Below, piece after piece: positions 765 through 34,763 of a DNA stretch of 64,000 nucleotides. The position numbers and the translations under genes were made by a program. The stretch lies in NCBI RefSeq assembly GCF_058153355.1, contig NZ_CM177019.1. One strand, 5' to 3'. Each line of letters starts with the position of its first letter. Position 1 is the first letter of the stretch. The notes under the pieces were generated by a model. It had not been told where the DNA came from and did not search any database. It saw only the letters and a program-made list of their open reading frames with translations.

Positions 765-3669
<2,905 letters not shown>

Positions 3670-5122: not shown

Positions 5123-6226
5123 TCAATGCGGTGTACGCCCGGTGTTAAAACGTTTTTCCAGATGTTGGCTATAACGTGACATGCTGAAACAGAAGATCCA
5201 GTAAATCAGTGCGGCGAAAACATAACCTTCCGTCGACATACCCAACCAGGCGGGATCGACAGTTGCCTGCTGCACACTACTGAAGAGATCGAACAGGCCG
5301 ATAATGATCACCAGACTGGTATCTTTAAAAAGTGCGATGATGGTATTCACCAGCCCAGGAATCACCAGCTTCAACGCCTGTGGCAGAATAACCAGCCCCT
5401 GGGTTTTCCAGTAACCCAACGCCAGAGACTCTGCCGCTTCATATTGCCCTTTAGGTAGCGCCTGTAATCCGCCTCGCACGACTTCCGCAACATATGCTGA
5501 CTGAAACAGGATCACGCCAACCAGCGCGCGGATCAATTTGTCGATACTGGTGCCTTCTGCCATAAACAACGGCAGCATGACCGAAGACATAAACAGAACG
5601 GTAATCAGCGGCACACCGCGCCAGAACTCGATAAAAATGACCGATAAGATACGCACAATCGGCATATGGGAGCGGCGACCTAACGCCAACAGGATCCCCC
5701 ACGGTAGCGCCCCCGCAATCCCAACTGATGCAATAATTAAAGTGAGCGTCAGCCCGCCCCATTGCCTGGTTTCAACCCGTTCAAGACCAAGAAACCCGCC
5801 ATACATCAGCCACCAGACAATCAGTGGGTAAATCACCGCCCAGACCGCAATATAGCGACCGCGATGCGGGAGTATTTTCCAGAACATTGGTGCGATAGAA
5901 ACAAGGCCAATCAGTAATGCCAGGTTAATTCGCCAGCGTTGGTCGTGTGGGTAAAGCCCATACATAAACTGACCAAATCGTTCGTGGATGAAGACCCAAC
6001 AGGCACCTGCTTTTGTGCAGTCGGCACGCGTTGAGCCAACCCAGTTAGCCTGCAAAAATGCCCAGTTCAGCAATGGTGGGATCAGTTCCCACATCAACCA
6101 TATGCAGCCAATAGTCAGCAGGCTATTGCTCCAGCTGGAGAACAGATTTTTCCGCACCCACACCATCGCGCGGCTTGTGTTATGGCTCGCCGGGCGCGGG
6201 GGATGAGACAGCAATACTTTTGTCAT
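5123..6226 (-). CDS. yhdY: Amino-acid ABC transporter permease
   Basis: Multi-TM protein with EAA-like loop; start set at second ATG (AAGGAG 5 nt upstream) giving 367 aa. Confidence 0.85.
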
Positions 6227-24247: not shown

Positions 24248-25669
24248 ATGACGGATGTTATTCTTGATGTTTCGCATATTGCGAAGACATTTGGTCATGT
24301 TCAGGCATTAAAAGATATTACACTCTCTTTACGTAAAGGGCGGGTACATACTTTATTAGGTGAGAATGGTGCCGGTAAATCGACATTAATGAAAATATTG
24401 GCCGGTGTTTATCCGCCAACCCAGGGAACAATAAAACTACGTGGTGAAACTATCACAATTAATAATCCGCAGCATTCACGTCAGTTAGGGATTGCTATTA
24501 TTTTTCAGGAACTGAGCCTGAGTAATAATATGACCGTGGCGGAAAATATTTATGCCAATAATGAACCGCGACGTTTTGGCATTATTAACGATAAAAAAAT
24601 GCTCGCAGATTGCCAGAATCTCCTCGCGGAACTGGGCATCCCACTGGATCCGCTGGAAATGGTCGGCAATATGTCGATGGCACATAGGCAACTGGTAGAA
24701 ATTGCCAAAGCCTTAAGCTATGCAGCAGATGTCGTGATTATGGATGAACCGACATCTTCGCTAAGTGATAATGAAGCAGAGATTCTGTTTAACATTATTG
24801 AGAAATTAAAGCAGCGAGGTTGTGCGGTTATTTATATCTCTCATCGCATGGATGAAATTATGCGGATTTCAGATGATATTTCGGTGATCCGCGACGGTGA
24901 GTATATCGCTACGCATGAAAAGAAAAACAGTGATATCCAGCATTTGATTGCCCAAATGGTTGGTCGGGAAATGAAAAATATTTGGCCAGCACGTCTTGGG
25001 GAAAAGCCGGATGAAAATATTCCTGCAAAACTGGAAGTAAAAAACCTTTCCCATCCTTCGCTTTTTAAAGAGGTCAGTTTCGCTGTGCGTCCGGGGGAAG
25101 TCCTCGGATTTTTTGGCCTGGTGGGGGCCGGGCGTTCCGATGTGATGAAGGCGCTATTTGGCCTCATTTCGTATCACGGGACTGTGTTGATTGATGGTAA
25201 GGAAGTCAGGATCGCTAATCCCAAACAGGCCATTGATCATGGCATTGCATTTGTGACCGAAAACCGCAAGGAAGAAGGGTTAGTGCTGATGCACGACGTC
25301 AATATGAACACGCACCACGTGGCGTTTCAATATAACGCTTCGCGGATGGGACTCATCAATCACCGACAAGAAGAGACGAAGACGCTGCAATCTATTGCCA
25401 GAATGAATACTAAAGTGAGTTCTGTACATCAGGCTGTGGGGGCGCTAAGCGGCGGTAATCAACAGAAAATCGTGTTATCGAAGTGGCTGGAGAAAACCCC
25501 ACGTATTTTATTGCTCGATGAGCCTACGCGCGGAGTGGATGTCGGCGCAAAATTTGAAATCTATAACGTGATACGTCAACTGGCTGCGGCAGGAACAGCA
25601 ATTATTCTGGTGTCCTCTGAACTGCCTGAAGTCATGGCACTTAGCGATCGTCTGGTGGTTAATGCGTAA
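24248..25669 (+). CDS. Sugar ABC transporter ATP-binding protein, two-domain RbsA-like; apparent frameshift truncates C-terminus (remaining 28 codons continue in the next frame to 25748)
   Basis: Two nucleotide-binding domains (Walker A GENGAGKST and GLVGAGRSD, signature LSGGNQQK, Walker B LLLDEPTRGVD); ORF stops after ...LSDRLVVNA, while the next frame reads MRNKTIADIYSCENLTQTQVMTAATGVR and ends directly before the permease ATG. Confidence 0.8.
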   Translation: MTDVILDVSHIAKTFGHVQALKDITLSLRKGRVHTLLGENGAGKSTLMKILAGVYPPTQGTIKLRGETITINNPQHSRQLGIAIIFQELSLSNNMTVAENIYANNEPRRFGIINDKKMLADCQNLLAELGIPLDPLEMVGNMSMAHRQLVEIAKALSYAADVVIMDEPTSSLSDNEAEILFNIIEKLKQRGCAVIYISHRMDEIMRISDDISVIRDGEYIATHEKKNSDIQHLIAQMVGREMKNIWPARLGEKPDENIPAKLEVKNLSHPSLFKEVSFAVRPGEVLGFFGLVGAGRSDVMKALFGLISYHGTVLIDGKEVRIANPKQAIDHGIAFVTENRKEEGLVLMHDVNMNTHHVAFQYNASRMGLINHRQEETKTLQSIARMNTKVSSVHQAVGALSGGNQQKIVLSKWLEKTPRILLLDEPTRGVDVGAKFEIYNVIRQLAAAGTAIILVSSELPEVMALSDRLVVNA

Positions 25670-25748
25670 TAAAACGATTGCCGATATTTATTCATGTGAA
25701 AATTTAACGCAGACACAGGTAATGACCGCTGCAACAGGAGTACGTTAA

Positions 25749-26738
25749 ATGACAGAGAAAACTCTTGCCAGTCCGAAACCTTCGGAAATTCCCATTGCAA
25801 ATAATTTTAAAAAAGTCTTCAGGCAATATGGCGGTATCCTCAGTGGAATGGTGGTGTTAATCATTCTGTTCAGTTTTATTAATGACAGTTTTTTTACTGC
25901 CAATAACATTACTAATATTATTCTTCAGGTTTCGATAATTGCAATTACCGCCTATGGAATGACTTATGTACTTTTGCTTGGCGATATTGATTTATCGGTC
26001 GGTTCAACCATTGCATTGATTGGCACATTTGCTGCGCTTGGGGCTTCATGGGGAATTCCATTTATTTTATTGGTCCCATTATCCATTATTGTAGCCCTGG
26101 CTCTGGGGATGATAAATGGTGGCTTGACGGCTATAGCGGGTATCCCTTCGTTTATTGTCACCGTTGCTACAATGGGGATCTTCCGTGGTATCGCTTATAT
26201 AGTGACCGATGGTATGCCCATCATGATTAAAGATGATGCCTTTCTGGCGCTGGGGAATGGAGAATTTCTCTATATACCGATTCCTATCTGGATATTAATC
26301 ATCTTATTGCTGATTAACCACTTCATTCTTACTAAAACAACCTTTGGACGAAAAATTTATATCACTGGTGGTAATAAAGAAGCGGCAGTCTATTCAGGGA
26401 TAAATGTCACCCGCTTGAAAATTAAAGTCTTTATGATTACAGCCGTGCTGGCAGGTATCAGCGGGATGATCCTCGCCTCACGCCTCTATTCCGGGCAACC
26501 GAATTCCGCGTTGAGCTACGAACTGGATGCTATTGCCGCGGCTGTACTGGGAGGCACCAGCCTGAACGGCGGCTATGGAACCGTGGTGGGGACGGTGATC
26601 GGCGCATTAACCATCGGCGTTATTAATAATGGCATGAACTTAATGAATGTTCCCTATTTTTACCAGATGGTGGTTAAAGGATTAGTCATTCTTGTAGCCG
26701 TTTATTTTGACGTAAGAAATAAAAGAAAACGCAGCTAA
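25749..26738 (+). CDS. Sugar ABC transporter permease (RbsC-like)
   Basis: 329 aa, about 10 TM segments, start codon abuts the frame-restored stop of the ATPase. Confidence 0.82.
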   Translation: MTEKTLASPKPSEIPIANNFKKVFRQYGGILSGMVVLIILFSFINDSFFTANNITNIILQVSIIAITAYGMTYVLLLGDIDLSVGSTIALIGTFAALGASWGIPFILLVPLSIIVALALGMINGGLTAIAGIPSFIVTVATMGIFRGIAYIVTDGMPIMIKDDAFLALGNGEFLYIPIPIWILIILLLINHFILTKTTFGRKIYITGGNKEAAVYSGINVTRLKIKVFMITAVLAGISGMILASRLYSGQPNSALSYELDAIAAAVLGGTSLNGGYGTVVGTVIGALTIGVINNGMNLMNVPYFYQMVVKGLVILVAVYFDVRNKRKRS

Positions 26739-26759
26739 TCATTTCAAGGAATTAATCAT

Positions 26760-27722
26760 ATGAGTAAGGTCTTCACAATTGGAGAAATTCTTGTTGAAAT
26801 TATGGCGAGTAAAATCGGCCAGCCATTTGATCAACCAGGTATCTGGAACGGCCCTTATCCCAGTGGTGCGCCCGCTATTTTTATCGACCAGGTGACACGT
26901 CTTGGCGTTCCGTGCGGCATCATTAGCTGTGTGGGGAATGATGGCTTTGGTGATATTAATATACATCGTTTGGCTGCTGATGGTGTGGATATCAGGGGGA
27001 TTTCAGTCTTACCTCTGGAAGCCACCGGTAGCGCCTTTGTTACTTATCATAACTCTGGCGATCGTGATTTTATTTTTAATATCAAGAATGCCGCTTGCGG
27101 TAAATTATCGGCGCAGCATGTTGATGAAAATATTCTGAAGGACTGTACCCATTTTCATATTATGGGTTCATCCCTGTTTTCATTCCATATGGTAGACGCA
27201 GTAAAGAAAGCGGTAACCATTGTAAAGGAGAATGGTGGCGTTATTTCTTTCGACCCTAATATTCGGAAAGAGATGCTCGATATTCCAGAAATGCGTGACG
27301 CCCTCCACTTTGTTCTTGAGTTAACAGATATCTATATGCCCAGCGAGGGAGAAGTGTTGCTCTTGTCGCCACACTCGACACCGGAGCGTGCAATCGCTGG
27401 TTTTCTTGAAGAAGGTGTTAAAGAGGTGATTGTGAAGCGCGGCAATCAAGGTGCCAGTTACTACTCCGCGAATGAGCAGTTTCATGTTGAGAGCTATCCG
27501 GTGGATGAAGTTGACCCGACCGGTGCGGGAGACTGCTTTGGTGGCGCGTGGATTGCCTGCCGCCAGCTAGGGTTTGACGCCCATCGGGCATTACAATATG
27601 CCAACGCCTGCGGTGCACTGGCGGTAACCCGACGTGGCCCAATGGAGGGAACGTCTCGCCTTGCGGAAATCGAAGCGTTCATCCAGCGCCATGACATGTC
27701 CATTCGGGAAGCAGCACAATGA
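26760..27722 (+). CDS. PfkB-family sugar kinase (island kinase 2)
   Basis: 320 aa; DPTGAGDCFGGAW anion-hole motif, PSGAPAIF N-terminal motif; paralog of kinase 1. Confidence 0.82.
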   Translation: MSKVFTIGEILVEIMASKIGQPFDQPGIWNGPYPSGAPAIFIDQVTRLGVPCGIISCVGNDGFGDINIHRLAADGVDIRGISVLPLEATGSAFVTYHNSGDRDFIFNIKNAACGKLSAQHVDENILKDCTHFHIMGSSLFSFHMVDAVKKAVTIVKENGGVISFDPNIRKEMLDIPEMRDALHFVLELTDIYMPSEGEVLLLSPHSTPERAIAGFLEEGVKEVIVKRGNQGASYYSANEQFHVESYPVDEVDPTGAGDCFGGAWIACRQLGFDAHRALQYANACGALAVTRRGPMEGTSRLAEIEAFIQRHDMSIREAAQ

Positions 27723-28765
27723 AAAACGAAATTTGGTCGTGGATTGGCGATCTCTCGCAGGTTGCCGGAATTAAACACTATGAGTTACGTAGTGGCAGAT
27801 CAAAGGGGACAGAAGCGTTTGATGTCCGTACTGGTGCGGGATTGGCATTTACGGTGGTAAAAGATCGCGCGCTGGATATTGCATGGGCCAGCTACAAGGA
27901 CACTGCGCTCTCTTTTATCACCCCCAACGGCATTGTCGCGCCTGCTTTTTTTGAGCCGCAGGGCAATGGATTTTTGCGTAGCTTCTACGCGGGATTACTG
28001 ACCACATGCGGACTTAGCTACATTGGGACGCCCTGTGAGGATGAAGGAGAAACGCTGGGATTACCCGGACGTTTGGCTGCGACACCAGCGGAAGAGGTGG
28101 GATATCGCACAGAACGGACCGACGACGGCATTGAATTTGTCATCAATGGCAAATTACGGGAAACGCGATTGTTCGGTGAAAATCTGACGTTGGAAAGGAC
28201 CATTCGCTGCCGCTATGGCGAAAATGTGCTGCGCATTGAAGACAAGGTGACTAATCATGGTTTCACCCGCCAGCCGCTGCAAATTCTTTATCACTTTAAT
28301 TACGGCTGGCCTTTATTATCGCCACAGGCAGAAATCTTGCTGTCGGCTAAAAGCGTAACGCCACGAACCCCGCATGCGGCGGAAGGGTTAACCAGTCATC
28401 TGGAGATTTGTACCCCACAGCCCGGTTTTGACGAGCAGGTTTACTATCTCACGTTGAATAGCGACAGTCAGGGGATGAGTAAAGTTGCGCTGGTGAACGC
28501 CGAACTGGGGTGGGGAATTTACGAGAAATTCGACACCATGCAGCTACCCAACTTTATCCAGTGGAAAAATTTAGGCGCGGGTGAATATGTTATGGGGCTG
28601 GAGGTCAGCAATAGTTTTCCTGACGGTCGTGATAAAGAACGAGCGCAGGGGCGTCTGCCCTTTATAGAGCCAAGGGAAACAAAGACATACTGCTTTGAGC
28701 TGGGAATTGTTGATGGCGATGCTGAAATTAGCGCGTTGAAAGCGGAAATTGCAGGCTACCGTTAG
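27719..28765 (+). CDS. Uncharacterised protein, possibly aldose-1-epimerase/mutarotase-like (DUF-type)
   Basis: 348 aa, no recognisable catalytic motif by eye; start overlaps kinase 2 stop by 4 nt (ATGA), so translationally coupled; family assignment is a guess. Confidence 0.5.
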   Translation: MKNEIWSWIGDLSQVAGIKHYELRSGRSKGTEAFDVRTGAGLAFTVVKDRALDIAWASYKDTALSFITPNGIVAPAFFEPQGNGFLRSFYAGLLTTCGLSYIGTPCEDEGETLGLPGRLAATPAEEVGYRTERTDDGIEFVINGKLRETRLFGENLTLERTIRCRYGENVLRIEDKVTNHGFTRQPLQILYHFNYGWPLLSPQAEILLSAKSVTPRTPHAAEGLTSHLEICTPQPGFDEQVYYLTLNSDSQGMSKVALVNAELGWGIYEKFDTMQLPNFIQWKNLGAGEYVMGLEVSNSFPDGRDKERAQGRLPFIEPRETKTYCFELGIVDGDAEISALKAEIAGYR

Positions 28766-28856: not shown

Positions 28857-30206
28857 TTATTTTTCCTGAAGACCGAGTTTTTTCTCCAGATAGTGGATGT
28901 TAGTGCCACCATGCTGGAAGTTCTCGTCATTCATGATGCGAATCTGCAGATCAACGTTGGTTTTGATACCATCGATGATCAGCTCCTGCAGCGCATTCTT
29001 CATGCGGGCAATCGCTACGTCACGGTTTTCACCGTAGCAAATCAGCTTACCGATCATTGAGTCATAGTACGGCGGTACGGTGTAGCCCGCGTAGATATGA
29101 GACTCCCAACGCACGCCAAAACCGCCAGGTGCATGGAAACGGGTGATTTTGCCCGGACTTGGCAGGAAGGTGTTCGGATCTTCGGCGTTAATACGGCATT
29201 CCACCGCATGGCCGCGAACGTGAACTTCTTCTTGCTTGATCGACAGTGGCTGACCAGCAGCAATACGCAGTTGTTCTTTGATCAGGTCAACACCGGTGAT
29301 CATTTCAGTAACCGGGTGTTCTACCTGAATACGGGTGTTCATTTCGATGAAATAGAACTCGCCGTTTTCGAACAGAAACTCGAAAGTACCTGCACCGCGA
29401 TAGCCGATATCAACACACGCTTTAGCACAACGTTCACCGATGTAGCGACGCAGTTCCGGGGTAATGCCCGGTGCTGGCGCTTCTTCGACCACTTTCTGGT
29501 GACGACGCTGCATAGAGCAGTCACGTTCCGCCAGATAGATAGCGTTGCCCTGACCGTCCGCCAGTACCTGGATCTCGACGTGGCGAGGATTTTCCAGGTA
29601 TTTCTCCATGTAAACCATGTCGTTATTGAAAGCGGCTTTCGCTTCCGCACGGGTCATGGAGATGGATTGCGCCAGTTCAGCGTCGCCGCGTACTACACGC
29701 ATACCACGACCGCCGCCGCCGCCGGAGGCTTTGATAATCACCGGGTAACCAATGCGTTTTGCAATGGCGCGGTTTTTATCCATATCGTCGCCCAGCGGGC
29801 CGTCAGAACCCGGTACGCAAGGAACGCCCGCTTTTTTCATCGCGGCGATTGCGGATACTTTGTCACCCATCAGGCGAATGGTGTCTGCTTTCGGGCCGAT
29901 GAAGATAAAGCCGGAGCGTTCAACCTGCTCGGCAAAATTGGCGTTCTCGGAGAGGAAGCCGTAACCCGGATGGATTGCTACTGCGCCGGTGATTTCAGCG
30001 GCGCTGATGATTGCCGGGATGTTCAGATAACTTTTTACTGACGGAGCAGGGCCGATACAGACCGTTTCGTCTGCCAGTAATACGTGTTTTAGATCGCGAT
30101 CCGCACTGGAGTGCACAGCGACAGTCTTGATGCCCAGTTCTTTACAGGCACGAAGAATACGCAATGCAATCTCGCCGCGGTTGGCAATAACAATTTTATC
30201 CAGCAT
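28857..30206 (-). CDS. accC: Biotin carboxylase subunit of acetyl-CoA carboxylase
   Basis: 449 aa starting [33 protein letters not shown]; ATP-grasp motifs; start trimmed from ORF-track extension (GAGG SD). Confidence 0.97.
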
Positions 30207-30216
30207 GTTCGCCTCG

Positions 30217-30687
30217 TTACTCGATGACGACCAGCGGCTCGTCAAATTCTACCGGTTGTCCACTTTCGACCAGAATTGCTTTCACGGTACCGGATTTGTC
30301 CGCTTCGATCTGGTTCATCATTTTCATGGCTTCAACGATGCACAGGGTATCGCCCACGTTGACTTTCTGCCCCACTTCGATGAACGCTTTTGCGTCCGGG
30401 CTTGGGGTGCGGTAGAAAGTACCAACCATCGGGGAACGTACGATGTGACCACTGATTTCCGCTGCTGCTGGCGCTTCCATGGAAGGAACGGTCGCCGGAG
30501 CGGCTGCGTTAGATTGAGCTGGCTGCTGCATCATTGGTGCAGCGTAAGCTTGTTGCATCACAGGGAAACTTGCGGCAGGAGCTGCACGGCTGATGCGTAC
30601 TGACTCTTCGCCTTCGGAGATTTCCAGTTCGGAGATGCCTGATTCTTCAACCAGCTCGATCAGTTTTTTAATCTTACGAATATCCAT
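30217..30687 (-). CDS. accB: Biotin carboxyl carrier protein of acetyl-CoA carboxylase
   Basis: 156 aa; biotinylation motif [10 protein letters not shown]; Ala/Pro-rich linker. Confidence 0.97.
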
Positions 30688-31696
30688 GAGTGGGTTCCGT
30701 ACTCTTTGTTTAGTGTGATTGTGACAGGCGTTTCACCGCCGTCTGTAAAGCGTATGCCCCGACAGCTGTATGCATAGCGATAAATTCCAGCAGGCCGGGA
30801 CGCCGGTCTATTTTGCCCCAGAGTGTCAATGTTTAGACTTGACGGACATTGTGCAGCGATCTGCTGCTATCCTCCGGCAAAAAACAAAATATACCTTCGT
30901 TGCGCCAATGTCACCTTTTCCGCAGCGCAAAAACTGCGTCAGGGAGGACGAGGTCGCACATTATAACGATTTCGTAGCAATTGGCAGCTAAATACTGGTC
31001 TTATCAGGGAAGATAATCAACAGCTAACATGTAAATAACCTTCAACACCGTGTAATTTGCAACAAGCCGCACAATTCACGAAATTAGCGCTATCGTCGAC
31101 GGAACTTCTTATAACGTAAGGCTAAAAGCTGTAAAGCTAGCTCTGCGAAGATGAGGGGCTGCAATGAGATGATCCTCACAGACCACAAATAATGTAGGGA
31201 TGTCAGGATCGCGGCAAGATAGACGACATTACGCAGCGGTTGCTGGTGATTACTCAATTTTCACGGCATCGTCCGGATAGACGTCTATGCTAAAGCACGC
31301 AAAATCAACAAACTGACAATGCTCAGCATCAAATAGTTTTGAGTGGTTAATTTATAATCAAATAAAATCAGATTATTCACCCCTGGGATCAGAGTTAAGA
31401 TACAGATTAAGCGTAGCGTCACCCAGGCAAAGCGCCTTAAACCTAACAGACGACGGGACGTATCAATAATGACTATTTAGTGGAGTATCAAGGGTGTTTT
31501 CCACCGTTTGGTGACCCGTATCAATGCGCATCAATTTATGGTCAGTCGAAATCATGACTTTCCAGTTTGGATGATGTTGTACAACTTCATGACCAAGATG
31601 TTCGACGAAAGCTGTCCGGCTAACCGCTTTTCCCGTTAACCGATTGAATAATGATTTCAAAATGAGTTCCCTCTCTTATTATTCCCTGATAAATGG

Positions 31697-32671
31697 TTAG
31701 TTAACCTTCACCAGCGTGCGACCCTGGATCTGGTTATTAATGATGGCCTCGGCAAATTTCGGTGCCTCTGCCAGAGATATCTCTTTTGCCGCCTGGGTAT
31801 AGAATGATTCCGGTAAATCGGCGACCAGTCGCTGCCAGGCTTGTGCGCGGCGTGCTGGTGGCGTCATCACTGAATCCACCCCCTGTAAACGGACATTACG
31901 CAGAATAAATGGCATGACCGTGGTTGGCAGAGTAAAACCACCCGCCAGACCACAGGCCGCCACGCAGCCGCCGTAATTCATTTGCGCCAGCACTTTCGCC
32001 AGCACTTTGTCGCCAACGGTGTCAATTGCCCCAGCCCAGAGTTGTTTTTCCAGAGGACGGGATTCGGCAAACTCATCGCGAGGGAGAATACGGCTGGCAC
32101 CTAAACTTTTCAGATATTCATGGGTACTTTCGCGACCGGAAACGGCAACGACCTGATAACCCAACTTATGCAGCAGCGCCACGGCGGTACTGCCGACGCC
32201 ACCACTGGCACCCGTTACGACAATCTCGCCGTCCTGCGGGCGAACACCGGCATCTTCCAGCGCCATCACACACAGCATGGCGGTAAAACCGGCAGTACCG
32301 ATAATCATTGCTTTACGCGCGTCCAGCCCTTGCGGCATGGCAACCAGCCAGTCACCTTTCACTCGCGCCTGCTCCGCCAGCCCACCCCAGTGGTTTTCAC
32401 CAACGCCCCAGCCAGTGAGTAACACGTCCTGACCGGCATGAAAACGCGGATCTTCGCTGGTGCGTACAGTTCCGGCAAAATCGATCCCAGGAATCATCGG
32501 AAAATTACGGATGATTTTTCCCTTACCAGTAATCGCCAGCGCATCTTTGTAGTTCAGGCTCGACCAGTGAACATCGACCGTGACATCGCCCTCCGGAAGG
32601 TGACTTTCGTCCAGAGTCTGTACCGATGCGAGAGTTTTGCCGTCCTGCTGTTCTAAAAGTAACGCCTGCAT
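31697..32671 (-). CDS. acuI: NADPH-dependent acryloyl-CoA reductase / quinone oxidoreductase-like MDR protein
   Basis: 324 aa medium-chain dehydrogenase/reductase fold with GASGGVGS nucleotide motif; K-12 yhdH position. Confidence 0.88.
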   Translation of the reverse strand: MQALLLEQQDGKTLASVQTLDESHLPEGDVTVDVHWSSLNYKDALAITGKGKIIRNFPMIPGIDFAGTVRTSEDPRFHAGQDVLLTGWGVGENHWGGLAEQARVKGDWLVAMPQGLDARKAMIIGTAGFTAMLCVMALEDAGVRPQDGEIVVTGASGGVGSTAVALLHKLGYQVVAVSGRESTHEYLKSLGASRILPRDEFAESRPLEKQLWAGAIDTVGDKVLAKVLAQMNYGGCVAACGLAGGFTLPTTVMPFILRNVRLQGVDSVMTPPARRAQAWQRLVADLPESFYTQAAKEISLAEAPKFAEAIINNQIQGRTLVKVN

Positions 32672-32822: not shown

Positions 32823-34763
32823 ATGAGATTAACGACGAAATTTTCGGCCTTTGTTACGCTGCTCACTGGGTTAACAATTTTTGTGACTTTGCTGGGCTGT
32901 TCGCTAAGTTTCTACAATGCCATTCAGTATAAGTTTAGTCATCGCGTTCAGGCAGTGGCAACGGCGATTGATACCCACCTTGTGTCGAATGACTTCAGCG
33001 CATTAAGGCCACAAATTACCGAATTAATGATGTCAGCAGATATCGTTCGTGTAGACCTGCTGCACGGCGATAAACAGGTATACACACTGACCAGAAATGG
33101 TAGTTATCGTCCGGTTGGCACCAGCGATCTGTTTCGCGAACTGAGCGTTCCGTTGATAAAGCATCCGGGGATGTCGCTGCGTCTGGTTTATCAGGATCCG
33201 ATGGGCAACTATTTCCATTCGTTGATGACCACCGCGCCGCTCACGGGGGCGATTGGCTTTATCATTCTTATGCTCTTCCTGGCGGTACGCTGGTTACAAC
33301 GGCAACTTGCCGGGCAAGAATTGCTGGAAACCCGGGCTACTCGTATCTTAAACGGTGAGCGTGGCTCTAATGTGTTGGGAACCATCTATGAATGGCCGCC
33401 CAGAACCAGCAGTGCGCTGGATACGCTGCTTCGTGAAATTCAGAACGCACGCGAACAACACAGCCGTCTTGATACGCTGATCCGCTCTTATGCCGCCCAG
33501 GACATGAAAACCGGCCTCAATAACCGACTCTTCTTCGATAATCAGTTAGCAACGTTACTGGAAGATCAGGAAAAAGTAGGTACCCACGGGATCGTGATGA
33601 TGATTCGTCTACCGGATTTCAATATGTTGAGCGATACCTGGGGGCACAGCCAGGTTGAAGAACAGTTCTTCACTCTGACGAATCTGCTGTCGACATTTAT
33701 GATGCGCTACCCTGGCGCACTGCTGGCGCGTTACCACCGCAGTGATTTTGCTGCGCTGTTGCCGCACCGGACGTTAAAAGAGGCTGAGAGCATAGCCAGT
33801 CAGTTAATCAAAGCCGTCGATACCTTGCCGAACAATAAAATGCTCGATCGCGACGATATGATCCACATTGGTATCTGTGCCTGGCGTAGTGGTCAGGATA
33901 CCGAGCAGGTAATGGAACATGCAGAGTCTGCCACGCGTAATGCGGGATTGCAGGGCGGCAATAGCTGGGCTATTTACGATGACTCGTTGCCTGAAAAAGG
34001 ACGCGGTAATGTTCGCTGGCGTACGCTTATCGAGCAAATGCTGAGTCGCGGCGGCCCGCGCCTTTATCAAAAACCGGCGGTTACTCGCGAAGGTCAGGTT
34101 CATCATCGAGAACTCATGTGCCGCATCTTCGATGGTAATGAAGAGGTTAGCTCGGCGGAGTATATGCCGATGGTCTTGCAGTTTGGCTTATCGGAAGAGT
34201 ATGACCGCCTGCAAATCAGCCGTCTGATTCCACTATTGCGTTACTGGCCGGAGGAAAATCTGGCGATTCAGGTTACCGTTGAGTCGCTGATTCGCCCGCG
34301 TTTTCAGCGTTGGCTGCGCGATACGTTAATGCAATGTGAAAGATCGCAACGAAAACGCATAATTATTGAACTTGCAGAGGCCGATGTAGGTCAACATATC
34401 AGTCGTTTACAACCTGTTATTCGTTTAGTGAATGCTTTAGGGGTACGGGTAGCCGTCAACCAGGCTGGTTTGACGCTGGTAAGCACCAGTTGGATCAAAG
34501 AACTTAATGTTGAGTTACTCAAGCTCCATCCGGGGCTGGTCAGAAACATTGAGAAGCGAACGGAGAATCAGCTGCTGGTTCAAAGCCTGGTGGAAGCCTG
34601 CTCCGGGACCAGCACCCAGGTTTACGCCACCGGCGTGCGTTCGCGAAGCGAGTGGCAGACCCTGATTCAGCGCGGTGTTACAGGTGGGCAAGGGGATTTT
34701 TTCGCGTCCTCACAGCCACTTGATACTAACGTGAAAAAATATTCACAAAGATACTCGGTTTAA
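32823..34763 (+). CDS. csrD: RNase E specificity factor CsrD (degenerate GGDEF-EAL protein)
   Basis: 646 aa; N-terminal TM segments, then GGDEF-like and EAL-like domains. Confidence 0.9.
   Translation: MRLTTKFSAFVTLLTGLTIFVTLLGCSLSFYNAIQYKFSHRVQAVATAIDTHLVSNDFSALRPQITELMMSADIVRVDLLHGDKQVYTLTRNGSYRPVGTSDLFRELSVPLIKHPGMSLRLVYQDPMGNYFHSLMTTAPLTGAIGFIILMLFLAVRWLQRQLAGQELLETRATRILNGERGSNVLGTIYEWPPRTSSALDTLLREIQNAREQHSRLDTLIRSYAAQDMKTGLNNRLFFDNQLATLLEDQEKVGTHGIVMMIRLPDFNMLSDTWGHSQVEEQFFTLTNLLSTFMMRYPGALLARYHRSDFAALLPHRTLKEAESIASQLIKAVDTLPNNKMLDRDDMIHIGICAWRSGQDTEQVMEHAESATRNAGLQGGNSWAIYDDSLPEKGRGNVRWRTLIEQMLSRGGPRLYQKPAVTREGQVHHRELMCRIFDGNEEVSSAEYMPMVLQFGLSEEYDRLQISRLIPLLRYWPEENLAIQVTVESLIRPRFQRWLRDTLMQCERSQRKRIIIELAEADVGQHISRLQPVIRLVNALGVRVAVNQAGLTLVSTSWIKELNVELLKLHPGLVRNIEKRTENQLLVQSLVEACSGTSTQVYATGVRSRSEWQTLIQRGVTGGQGDFFASSQPLDTNVKKYSQRYSV

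Follow-up and report, generated by a model that had tools for sequence, protein, structure and literature searches.

The interval between acuI (yhdH) and accB of Escherichia coli K-12 is already annotated, and it contains the closest described relatives of the feature studied here. In MG1655 (NC_000913.3), two pseudogenes lie between yhdH and accB, namely yrdF (b4697) at 3404495-3404637 and yrdE (b4646) at 3404638-3405031, and the map of a published plasmid gives the order 'acuI - yrdF' - yrdE - accB' (PMC7648144). Full-text literature searches for yrdF found no expression study. Across genomes, PGAP presents the corresponding frame, of 65 or 54 amino acids, as a "hypothetical protein" in some cases and omits it in others, and the protein collection contains the 65-aa sequence studied here, in identical form, on 527 contigs, likewise as a 'hypothetical protein'. 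A second relative is an intact gene of 276 codons (WP_000838295.1 and variants) found at the same position in other strains.

We analyzed a stretch of DNA of 64,000 nucleotides (hereafter the window), in which acuI (31697..32671, minus strand) and accB (30217..30687, minus strand) enclose a gap of 1009 nt, in agreement with the ~1 kb given in a first-pass annotation of this DNA. The region is of the E. coli type, with accC at 28857-30245 (minus strand) and csrD at 32823-34763 (plus strand). The program-made ORF list places a frame of 65 codons in this gap at 31463..31660 on the minus strand, with the same coordinates, start and translation as first described, and in the window sequence its TTG start codon occupies 31660-31658, 36 nt past the acuI stop. 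A Shine-Dalgarno-like AGAGGG (31669..31674, minus strand) is separated from the TTG by an 8-nt spacer (AACTCATT), close to the ~9 nt estimated earlier, and the peptide is indeed rich in histidine (7 of 65 residues). By its length the frame is not above chance, as other ORFs of 30–73 aa occur in various frames of the same gap, and Pfam and NCBIfam searches with the 65-aa peptide returned no family match. The earlier description of the ORF as unannotated did not hold, since MG1655 yrdF begins at the same base and PGAP calls a 'hypothetical protein' here in several genomes.

Comparison with K-12 identifies the frame. Nucleotides 1–143 of MG1655 yrdF align to window positions 31660-31518 with 97.2% identity, without gaps and from the same first base. 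Like K-12 yrdF', the window ORF starts with TTG 36 nt after the acuI/yhdH stop and crosses the same junction into an msrQ-like remnant; it differs in that the window allele keeps 33 bp (11 codons, a GHQTVENTLDT-type segment), so that the frame has 65 codons rather than 54. Position after acuI and before yrdE'-accB, identity and start, and truncation of a gene that is intact elsewhere all place the window ORF with yrdF'. We consider it very probable (~0.93) that a decayed gene has left the 65-codon ORF as its 5' stump, equivalent to the annotated K-12 pseudogene yrdF' (b4697). The feature is in this sense already known, as an annotated pseudogene fragment whose 3' end is chimeric with yrdE'.

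Homology to the intact gene, and not length, is what raises the 65-codon ORF above chance. Strain DG343-1 encodes an intact 276-aa protein whose N-terminus agrees with residues 1–58 of the ORF at 57/58 positions (E=2e-40), and past residue 58 the two sequences diverge completely. The intact gene of DG343-1 has 276 codons and starts 36 nt after acuI at the same TTG, and in the DNA alignment the window appears as a clean deletion relative to this full-length allele, with the deletion junction at 31486/31487. Codons 1–58 (31487..31660, minus strand) are the 5' remnant of a DUF1444-like gene, the yrdF' equivalent, homologous to the N-terminus of WP_000838295.1. Codons 59–65 and the stop (TPLNSHY plus stop; 31463..31486, minus strand) are an out-of-frame read of the msrQ-like remnant. 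The DNA beyond codon 58 is homologous to MsrQ in another frame (...IVIIDTSRRLLGLRRFAWVTL...GVNNL...HYLWSV...LRYKK), and in a three-frame translation this MsrQ-like frame, ...IVIIDTSRRLLGL, overlaps the ORF tail, so that TPLNSHY and the stop are an accidental read. In all homologues aligned (51–88% identity to the 65-aa ORF), conservation of this N-terminal segment of 58 residues sets in at residue 2; this confirms the TTG as the start and marks the stump as genuine former coding sequence. The suspicion that the ORF may be spurious can be kept insofar as it is perhaps no genuine gene, but it is not a chance ORF, being the 5' stump of a gene of 276 codons.

A single deletion in the window lineage took everything from codon 59 of the DUF1444-like gene through about codon 65 of an msrQ paralogue. 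The 58 original codons, with the TTG and the ribosome-binding site, were left behind, and the frame now enters the yrdE' remnant and stops after seven more codons. The AGAGGG is inherited from the intact gene and is the same in every strain sampled (upstream 25 nt, 20 sequences). Of the ~240 residues covered by the DUF1444 profile alignment in the intact protein (29–270), the stump retains only ~30, and with so little of the domain left it would be unable to carry out the function of the parent protein or to fold like it. The stump is probably still transcribed on the acuI mRNA, because no terminator lies between acuI and the stump and its initiation signals are intact, and residual translation from the intact start codon and ribosome-binding site may yield a short peptide, presumably without function.

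The parent gene is a minority allele of the species. A megablast search with the gap as query hit 5425 of 5426 complete E. coli genomes, and a minority of records have a gap that is ~720 bp longer and holds a gene labelled "DUF1444 domain-containing protein" or "hypothetical protein". Among the 5426 genomes, 667 (~12%) have the deleted segment, O26, O111, O121 and O145 strains among them, and E. albertii also carries the intact gene between acuI and accB. The intact gene is under purifying selection with an omega of about 0.1, as Nei-Gojobori estimates range from 0.10 to 0.14 between E. coli and E. albertii and from 0.08 to 0.28 among E. coli alleles. It shares with the window its promoter-proximal context, ribosome-binding site, start and first 58 codons; it differs in having 218 further codons, an intrinsic terminator and purifying selection, all of which the window has lost.

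The DUF1444 label of this parent gene is weak. Pfam DUF1444 (PF07285) scores 17.1 bits against an intact homologue, below the cutoff of 23.8 (E=0.004), with residues 29–270 of the intact protein aligning end to end with profile positions 15–254 of 264, and NCBIfam PRK13668 scores 22.6 against a threshold of 221 bits. The stump itself falls outside the family, with no Pfam match and with only residues 1–58 of an incomplete domain. A sequence search of the Protein Data Bank with the intact protein gave no meaningful match, and a protein search returned only Escherichia proteins and three divergent homologues (62–78% identity, from Logan assemblies). The family is very narrow, as a scan of species-representative genomes with the intact protein returned E. 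albertii only. The 62%-identical homologue (Logan ERR11172932 contig L021, 3898-4731) lies among genes of plasmid or mobile-element type (KfrA_N, Aca2_YdiL and a ResIII fragment). This context, taken from the sole one of the three divergent homologues with enough flanking sequence to judge, hints that the DUF1444-like family also travels on mobile DNA.

Divergence between the full-length alleles of E. coli and E. albertii is uneven along the gene. Codons 2–58 have a dS of 0.03–0.085, compared with 0.32 for codons 59–268, and the spacer between acuI and the ORF together with the first ~150 codons differs by 2–3%, compared with 11% for the acuI 3' end. This low-divergence tract (gene-strand positions 405-900 of L001 compared with L005, corresponding to window 31487-31696 onwards) could result from inter-species recombination or from constraint at the nucleotide level.

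The msrQ-like remnant adjacent to the stump is a pseudogene. It is the equivalent of yrdE' (31093..31484, minus strand), a copy of an msrQ/yedZ paralogue that covers MsrQ residues from about 66 to 193, lacks the N-terminus and has two in-frame stops. With MG1655 MsrQ as the tblastn query, residues 76–193 match the remnant at 59% identity (E=4e-31) across both stops, and the NCBIfam MsrQ profile aligns over positions 76–195 of 212 with 73.4 bits (E=1.7e-20), below the cutoff of 130. Scoring below the NCBIfam cutoff, partial and interrupted by two stops, the remnant does not qualify as full-length MsrQ/YedZ, a heme-binding membrane subunit, and PGAP also calls it a pseudogene in other genomes. 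Like the K-12 yrdE' (b4646), it is the 3' neighbour of the stump, and in the window it supplies the last seven codons and the stop of the ORF; it is a separate decayed gene in a different reading frame. MG1655 yrdE aligns to window 31484-31093 at 87.6% identity, i.e., the two copies differ by about 11–12%. Window-type and K-12-type sequences diverge by a mean of 10.6% in yrdE' (window 31093-31484), compared with 2.5% in the stump and 0.1% in the stretch upstream of accB; the yrdE' value reflects deep haplotypes inside one species, in a pseudogene of 400 bp. We also noticed that the MsrQ C-terminus, KKLRSLFNRLRKQV, resembles (M)KSLFNRLTGKAV at the DUF1444-like N-terminus (window 31622-31657, minus strand; MG1655 msrQ 3' end, L025 about 6060-6119). 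A rearrangement behind this SLFNRL motif, shared by the MsrQ C-terminus and the ORF N-terminus, was considered and rejected, as the nucleotide similarity is weak and the resemblance is probably due to chance.

The order of genes before the decay can be read from a Logan contig (SRR33454298_114260, L023), which carries acuI, then a DUF1444-like gene (78% identical to the intact E. coli protein), and then an msrP-like ORF. The first 66 residues of this ORF are 74% identical to residues 4–69 of MG1655 MsrP (tblastn); an NCBIfam search with the 50-aa MsrP N-terminal fragment of the contig was uninformative. Given this arrangement, the ancestral order is acuI, the 276-codon DUF1444-like gene, msrP, msrQ and accB. 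In the full-length Escherichia allele, the intergenic region and the start of msrP survive as a relic of 70% identity (98/140 columns, with an alignment score of 98 versus 19 +/- 3 for shuffles), after which the sequence jumps to MsrQ residue about 97. The window/K-12 allele keeps MsrQ residues from about 66 to 102, which are absent from the full-length allele, and is without the spacer of the full-length allele. Because the full-length and the deleted alleles hold different remnants, they represent non-nested deletions from a common ancestor, and the full-length allele is not simply the parent of the deleted one. The msrP 5' relic occupies 1115-1248 (plus strand) of L001, or 1277-1410 on the gene strand, where the terminator hairpin and T-run overlap the region in which msrP used to start. 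K-12 has its functional msrPQ elsewhere, beside hiuH/hprRS.

Decay has continued along several routes since. Two 7-bp direct repeats, GTATCAA, lie at 31485-31491 and 31518-31524 in the window (span 31485..31524; alignment columns 1611-1643), and K-12-type alleles (K-12, O157, APEC and others) have a further deletion of 33 bp between them, which leaves 54 codons. This in-frame deletion of 11 codons is the majority form. The longer junction of the window type occurs in at least 5 of the 5426 complete genomes, a lower bound from an exact-word search. Strain HS-02 has a frameshifted, partly deleted copy, strain 23AR0998 has an IS1 insertion, and called proteins of 64–133 aa fall into the same cluster as the 65-aa protein.

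The stump could have been retained because it serves some purpose itself, a reading that we regard as improbable. The translated frame of 54–65 codons might set the point at which Rho stops acuI read-through before the accB promoter, or the peptide might have gained a function. The Rho version builds on the lost terminator and on the about 400 nt of untranslated yrdE' RNA that follow the stump frame, and weak hints towards own use come from the start, ribosome-binding site and frame, which are intact in all deletion strains sampled, and from the low 5' divergence between E. coli and E. albertii. A narrower version, in which the stump was co-opted as an independent functional small protein of 54–65 aa made from the acuI transcript, seems to us very improbable. 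In its favour, the TTG, the Shine-Dalgarno sequence and the open frame are kept in all 14 of the deletion-allele sequences sampled, the diversity of the stump is below that of yrdE', and the point estimate of pN/pS is about 0.4, which is less than 1. At the observed diversity, only ~0.5 stop-creating substitutions and ~1 indel are expected in 141 nt, so an intact frame in 14/14 sequences is not significant; it would fit continued translation and, weakly, retention.

Polymorphism within the stump leans towards relaxed constraint, in a small sample. Across 12 aligned deletion alleles, 10 sites segregate in codons 1–47, of which 6 are nonsynonymous and 4 synonymous, where ~7.8:2.2 is expected under neutrality and ~2.6:7.4 at an omega of about 0.1. 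The observed proportion is indistinguishable from the neutral one (binomial P about 0.17) and unlike that of the parent gene, and several of the polymorphisms are common to full-length alleles. The synonymous-biased conservation proposed earlier as a check was accordingly not seen at the level of the intact gene (omega about 0.1), with the reservation that 10 sites are a small sample. Nucleotide diversity (pi) is threefold lower in the stump (0.022) than in yrdE' (0.069). Constraint on the stump at the nucleotide level was considered as an explanation and set aside, as most of the contrast disappears after the sequences are split into haplotype groups, within which pi is 0.019–0.021 for the stump and 0.024–0.037 for yrdE'; the contrast mostly results from two deeply diverged yrdE' groups (10.6% between groups). 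Further points against a small protein are that its out-of-frame C-terminal tail is accidental and varies among strains (TPLNSHY, TPPNSHY and TPLNSYY), that loss of 11 codons is tolerated and is the majority form, that variants of many other lengths exist while ~12% of genomes have the full gene, and that the peptide has no family match. We found no positive evidence of stump retention.

The proximity of accB raises a further alternative, which we find hardly credible: that the ORF or its DNA acts in accBC regulation as an upstream ORF, a leader element, or an insulator against acuI read-through to the accB promoter. The ORF lies 776–973 nt upstream of the accB ATG. The best and only strong match in a promoter scan is a sigma-70-like -35/-10 pair, CTGCCA-16-TATAAT (10/12; 30960..30987, minus strand), ~475 nt downstream of the ORF stop and at the distal edge of an invariant block upstream of accB. 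In the 300 nt upstream of accB, pi is 0.001 with 2 segregating sites, and this upstream region is the same, and invariant, in strains with the full gene and with both deletion types. In agreement with this, Li and Cronan reportedly located the accBC promoter about 300 nt upstream of accB, and the region around 30960..30987 is likely to be the accBC promoter region. The promoter scan and the conservation profile, together with the reported mapping, are the basis for this placement of the leader. The ORF had first been placed within or upstream of the accBC leader, and of these two options upstream stands and within does not: its end is 776 nt from the accB ATG, with the promoter-like site and the conserved block confined to the proximal 300 nt. 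The stump would thus have no part in the accBC leader.

What speaks for a regulatory role is the loss of a terminator. In full-length alleles, an intrinsic terminator (hairpin and T-run, L001 1191..1163) follows the intact gene, and the deletion removed it. Terminator prediction over window positions 30600-31800 gave none, including between acuI and the stump, so that acuI transcripts may cross the remnants towards accB, presumably until Rho acts. Such read-through would be the sole route to a regulatory side-effect. Against this role stand the distance of the ORF from accB, the identity of the accB upstream region whichever allele is present, and the behavior of an insertion at this site: in K-12, a Kan cassette just downstream of yrdE left growth rate and cell dimensions indistinguishable from those of the wild type, and the space 3' of yrdE served as a neutral marker site (bioRxiv 10.1101/359208). 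An RNA element at the ORF was also considered and ruled out, since the predicted fold of the stump RNA does not stand out (z = -1.9) and none of the Rfam families lies on the ORF. Finally, the other ORFs of 30–73 aa in the gap and the lack of a family match for the peptide might suggest a frame that arose by chance in AT-rich intergenic DNA, without any coding ancestry. This reading is already refuted to our satisfaction and has next to no probability left, as 57/58 residues match the N-terminus of an intact 276-aa gene, under selection, that other strains and E. albertii carry at this locus.

With the ORF taken as the stump of a decayed gene, the 65-codon frame represents ordinary gene decay, not a new small gene, and brings little new biology. 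It is a worked example of how a good short ORF with a ribosome-binding site, beside an essential operon, can be the head of a gene that segregates for presence and absence, and false "new small protein" calls commonly arise from such heads of decayed genes. The locus further preserves the trace of a former msrP-msrQ pair of Escherichia beside accB, and its two non-nested deletion alleles are of minor relevance to work on E. coli gene decay and recombination.

Three observations concern the surroundings of accBC in the window. Rfam gives a match below threshold to the Yersinia sRNA Ysr190 (window 30886-30985, minus strand; 25 bits versus a gathering score of 66, E=0.27) in the conserved stretch upstream of accB, and this match may do no more than reflect the conserved accB 5' UTR. 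At about position 30833, the window has one extra T in the otherwise invariant accB upstream region, compared with four other strains (alignment column 233). Directly downstream of accC, on the plus strand at 24248-28765, lie genes for an ABC ATPase, a BPD_transp_2 permease, a PfkB sugar kinase and a DUF4432/aldose-1-epimerase-family protein, the last of which is annotated in strain 24A16CRGN010 too. In K-12, yhdT-panF follow accC immediately, so this four-gene block looks like an accessory sugar-utilization island.
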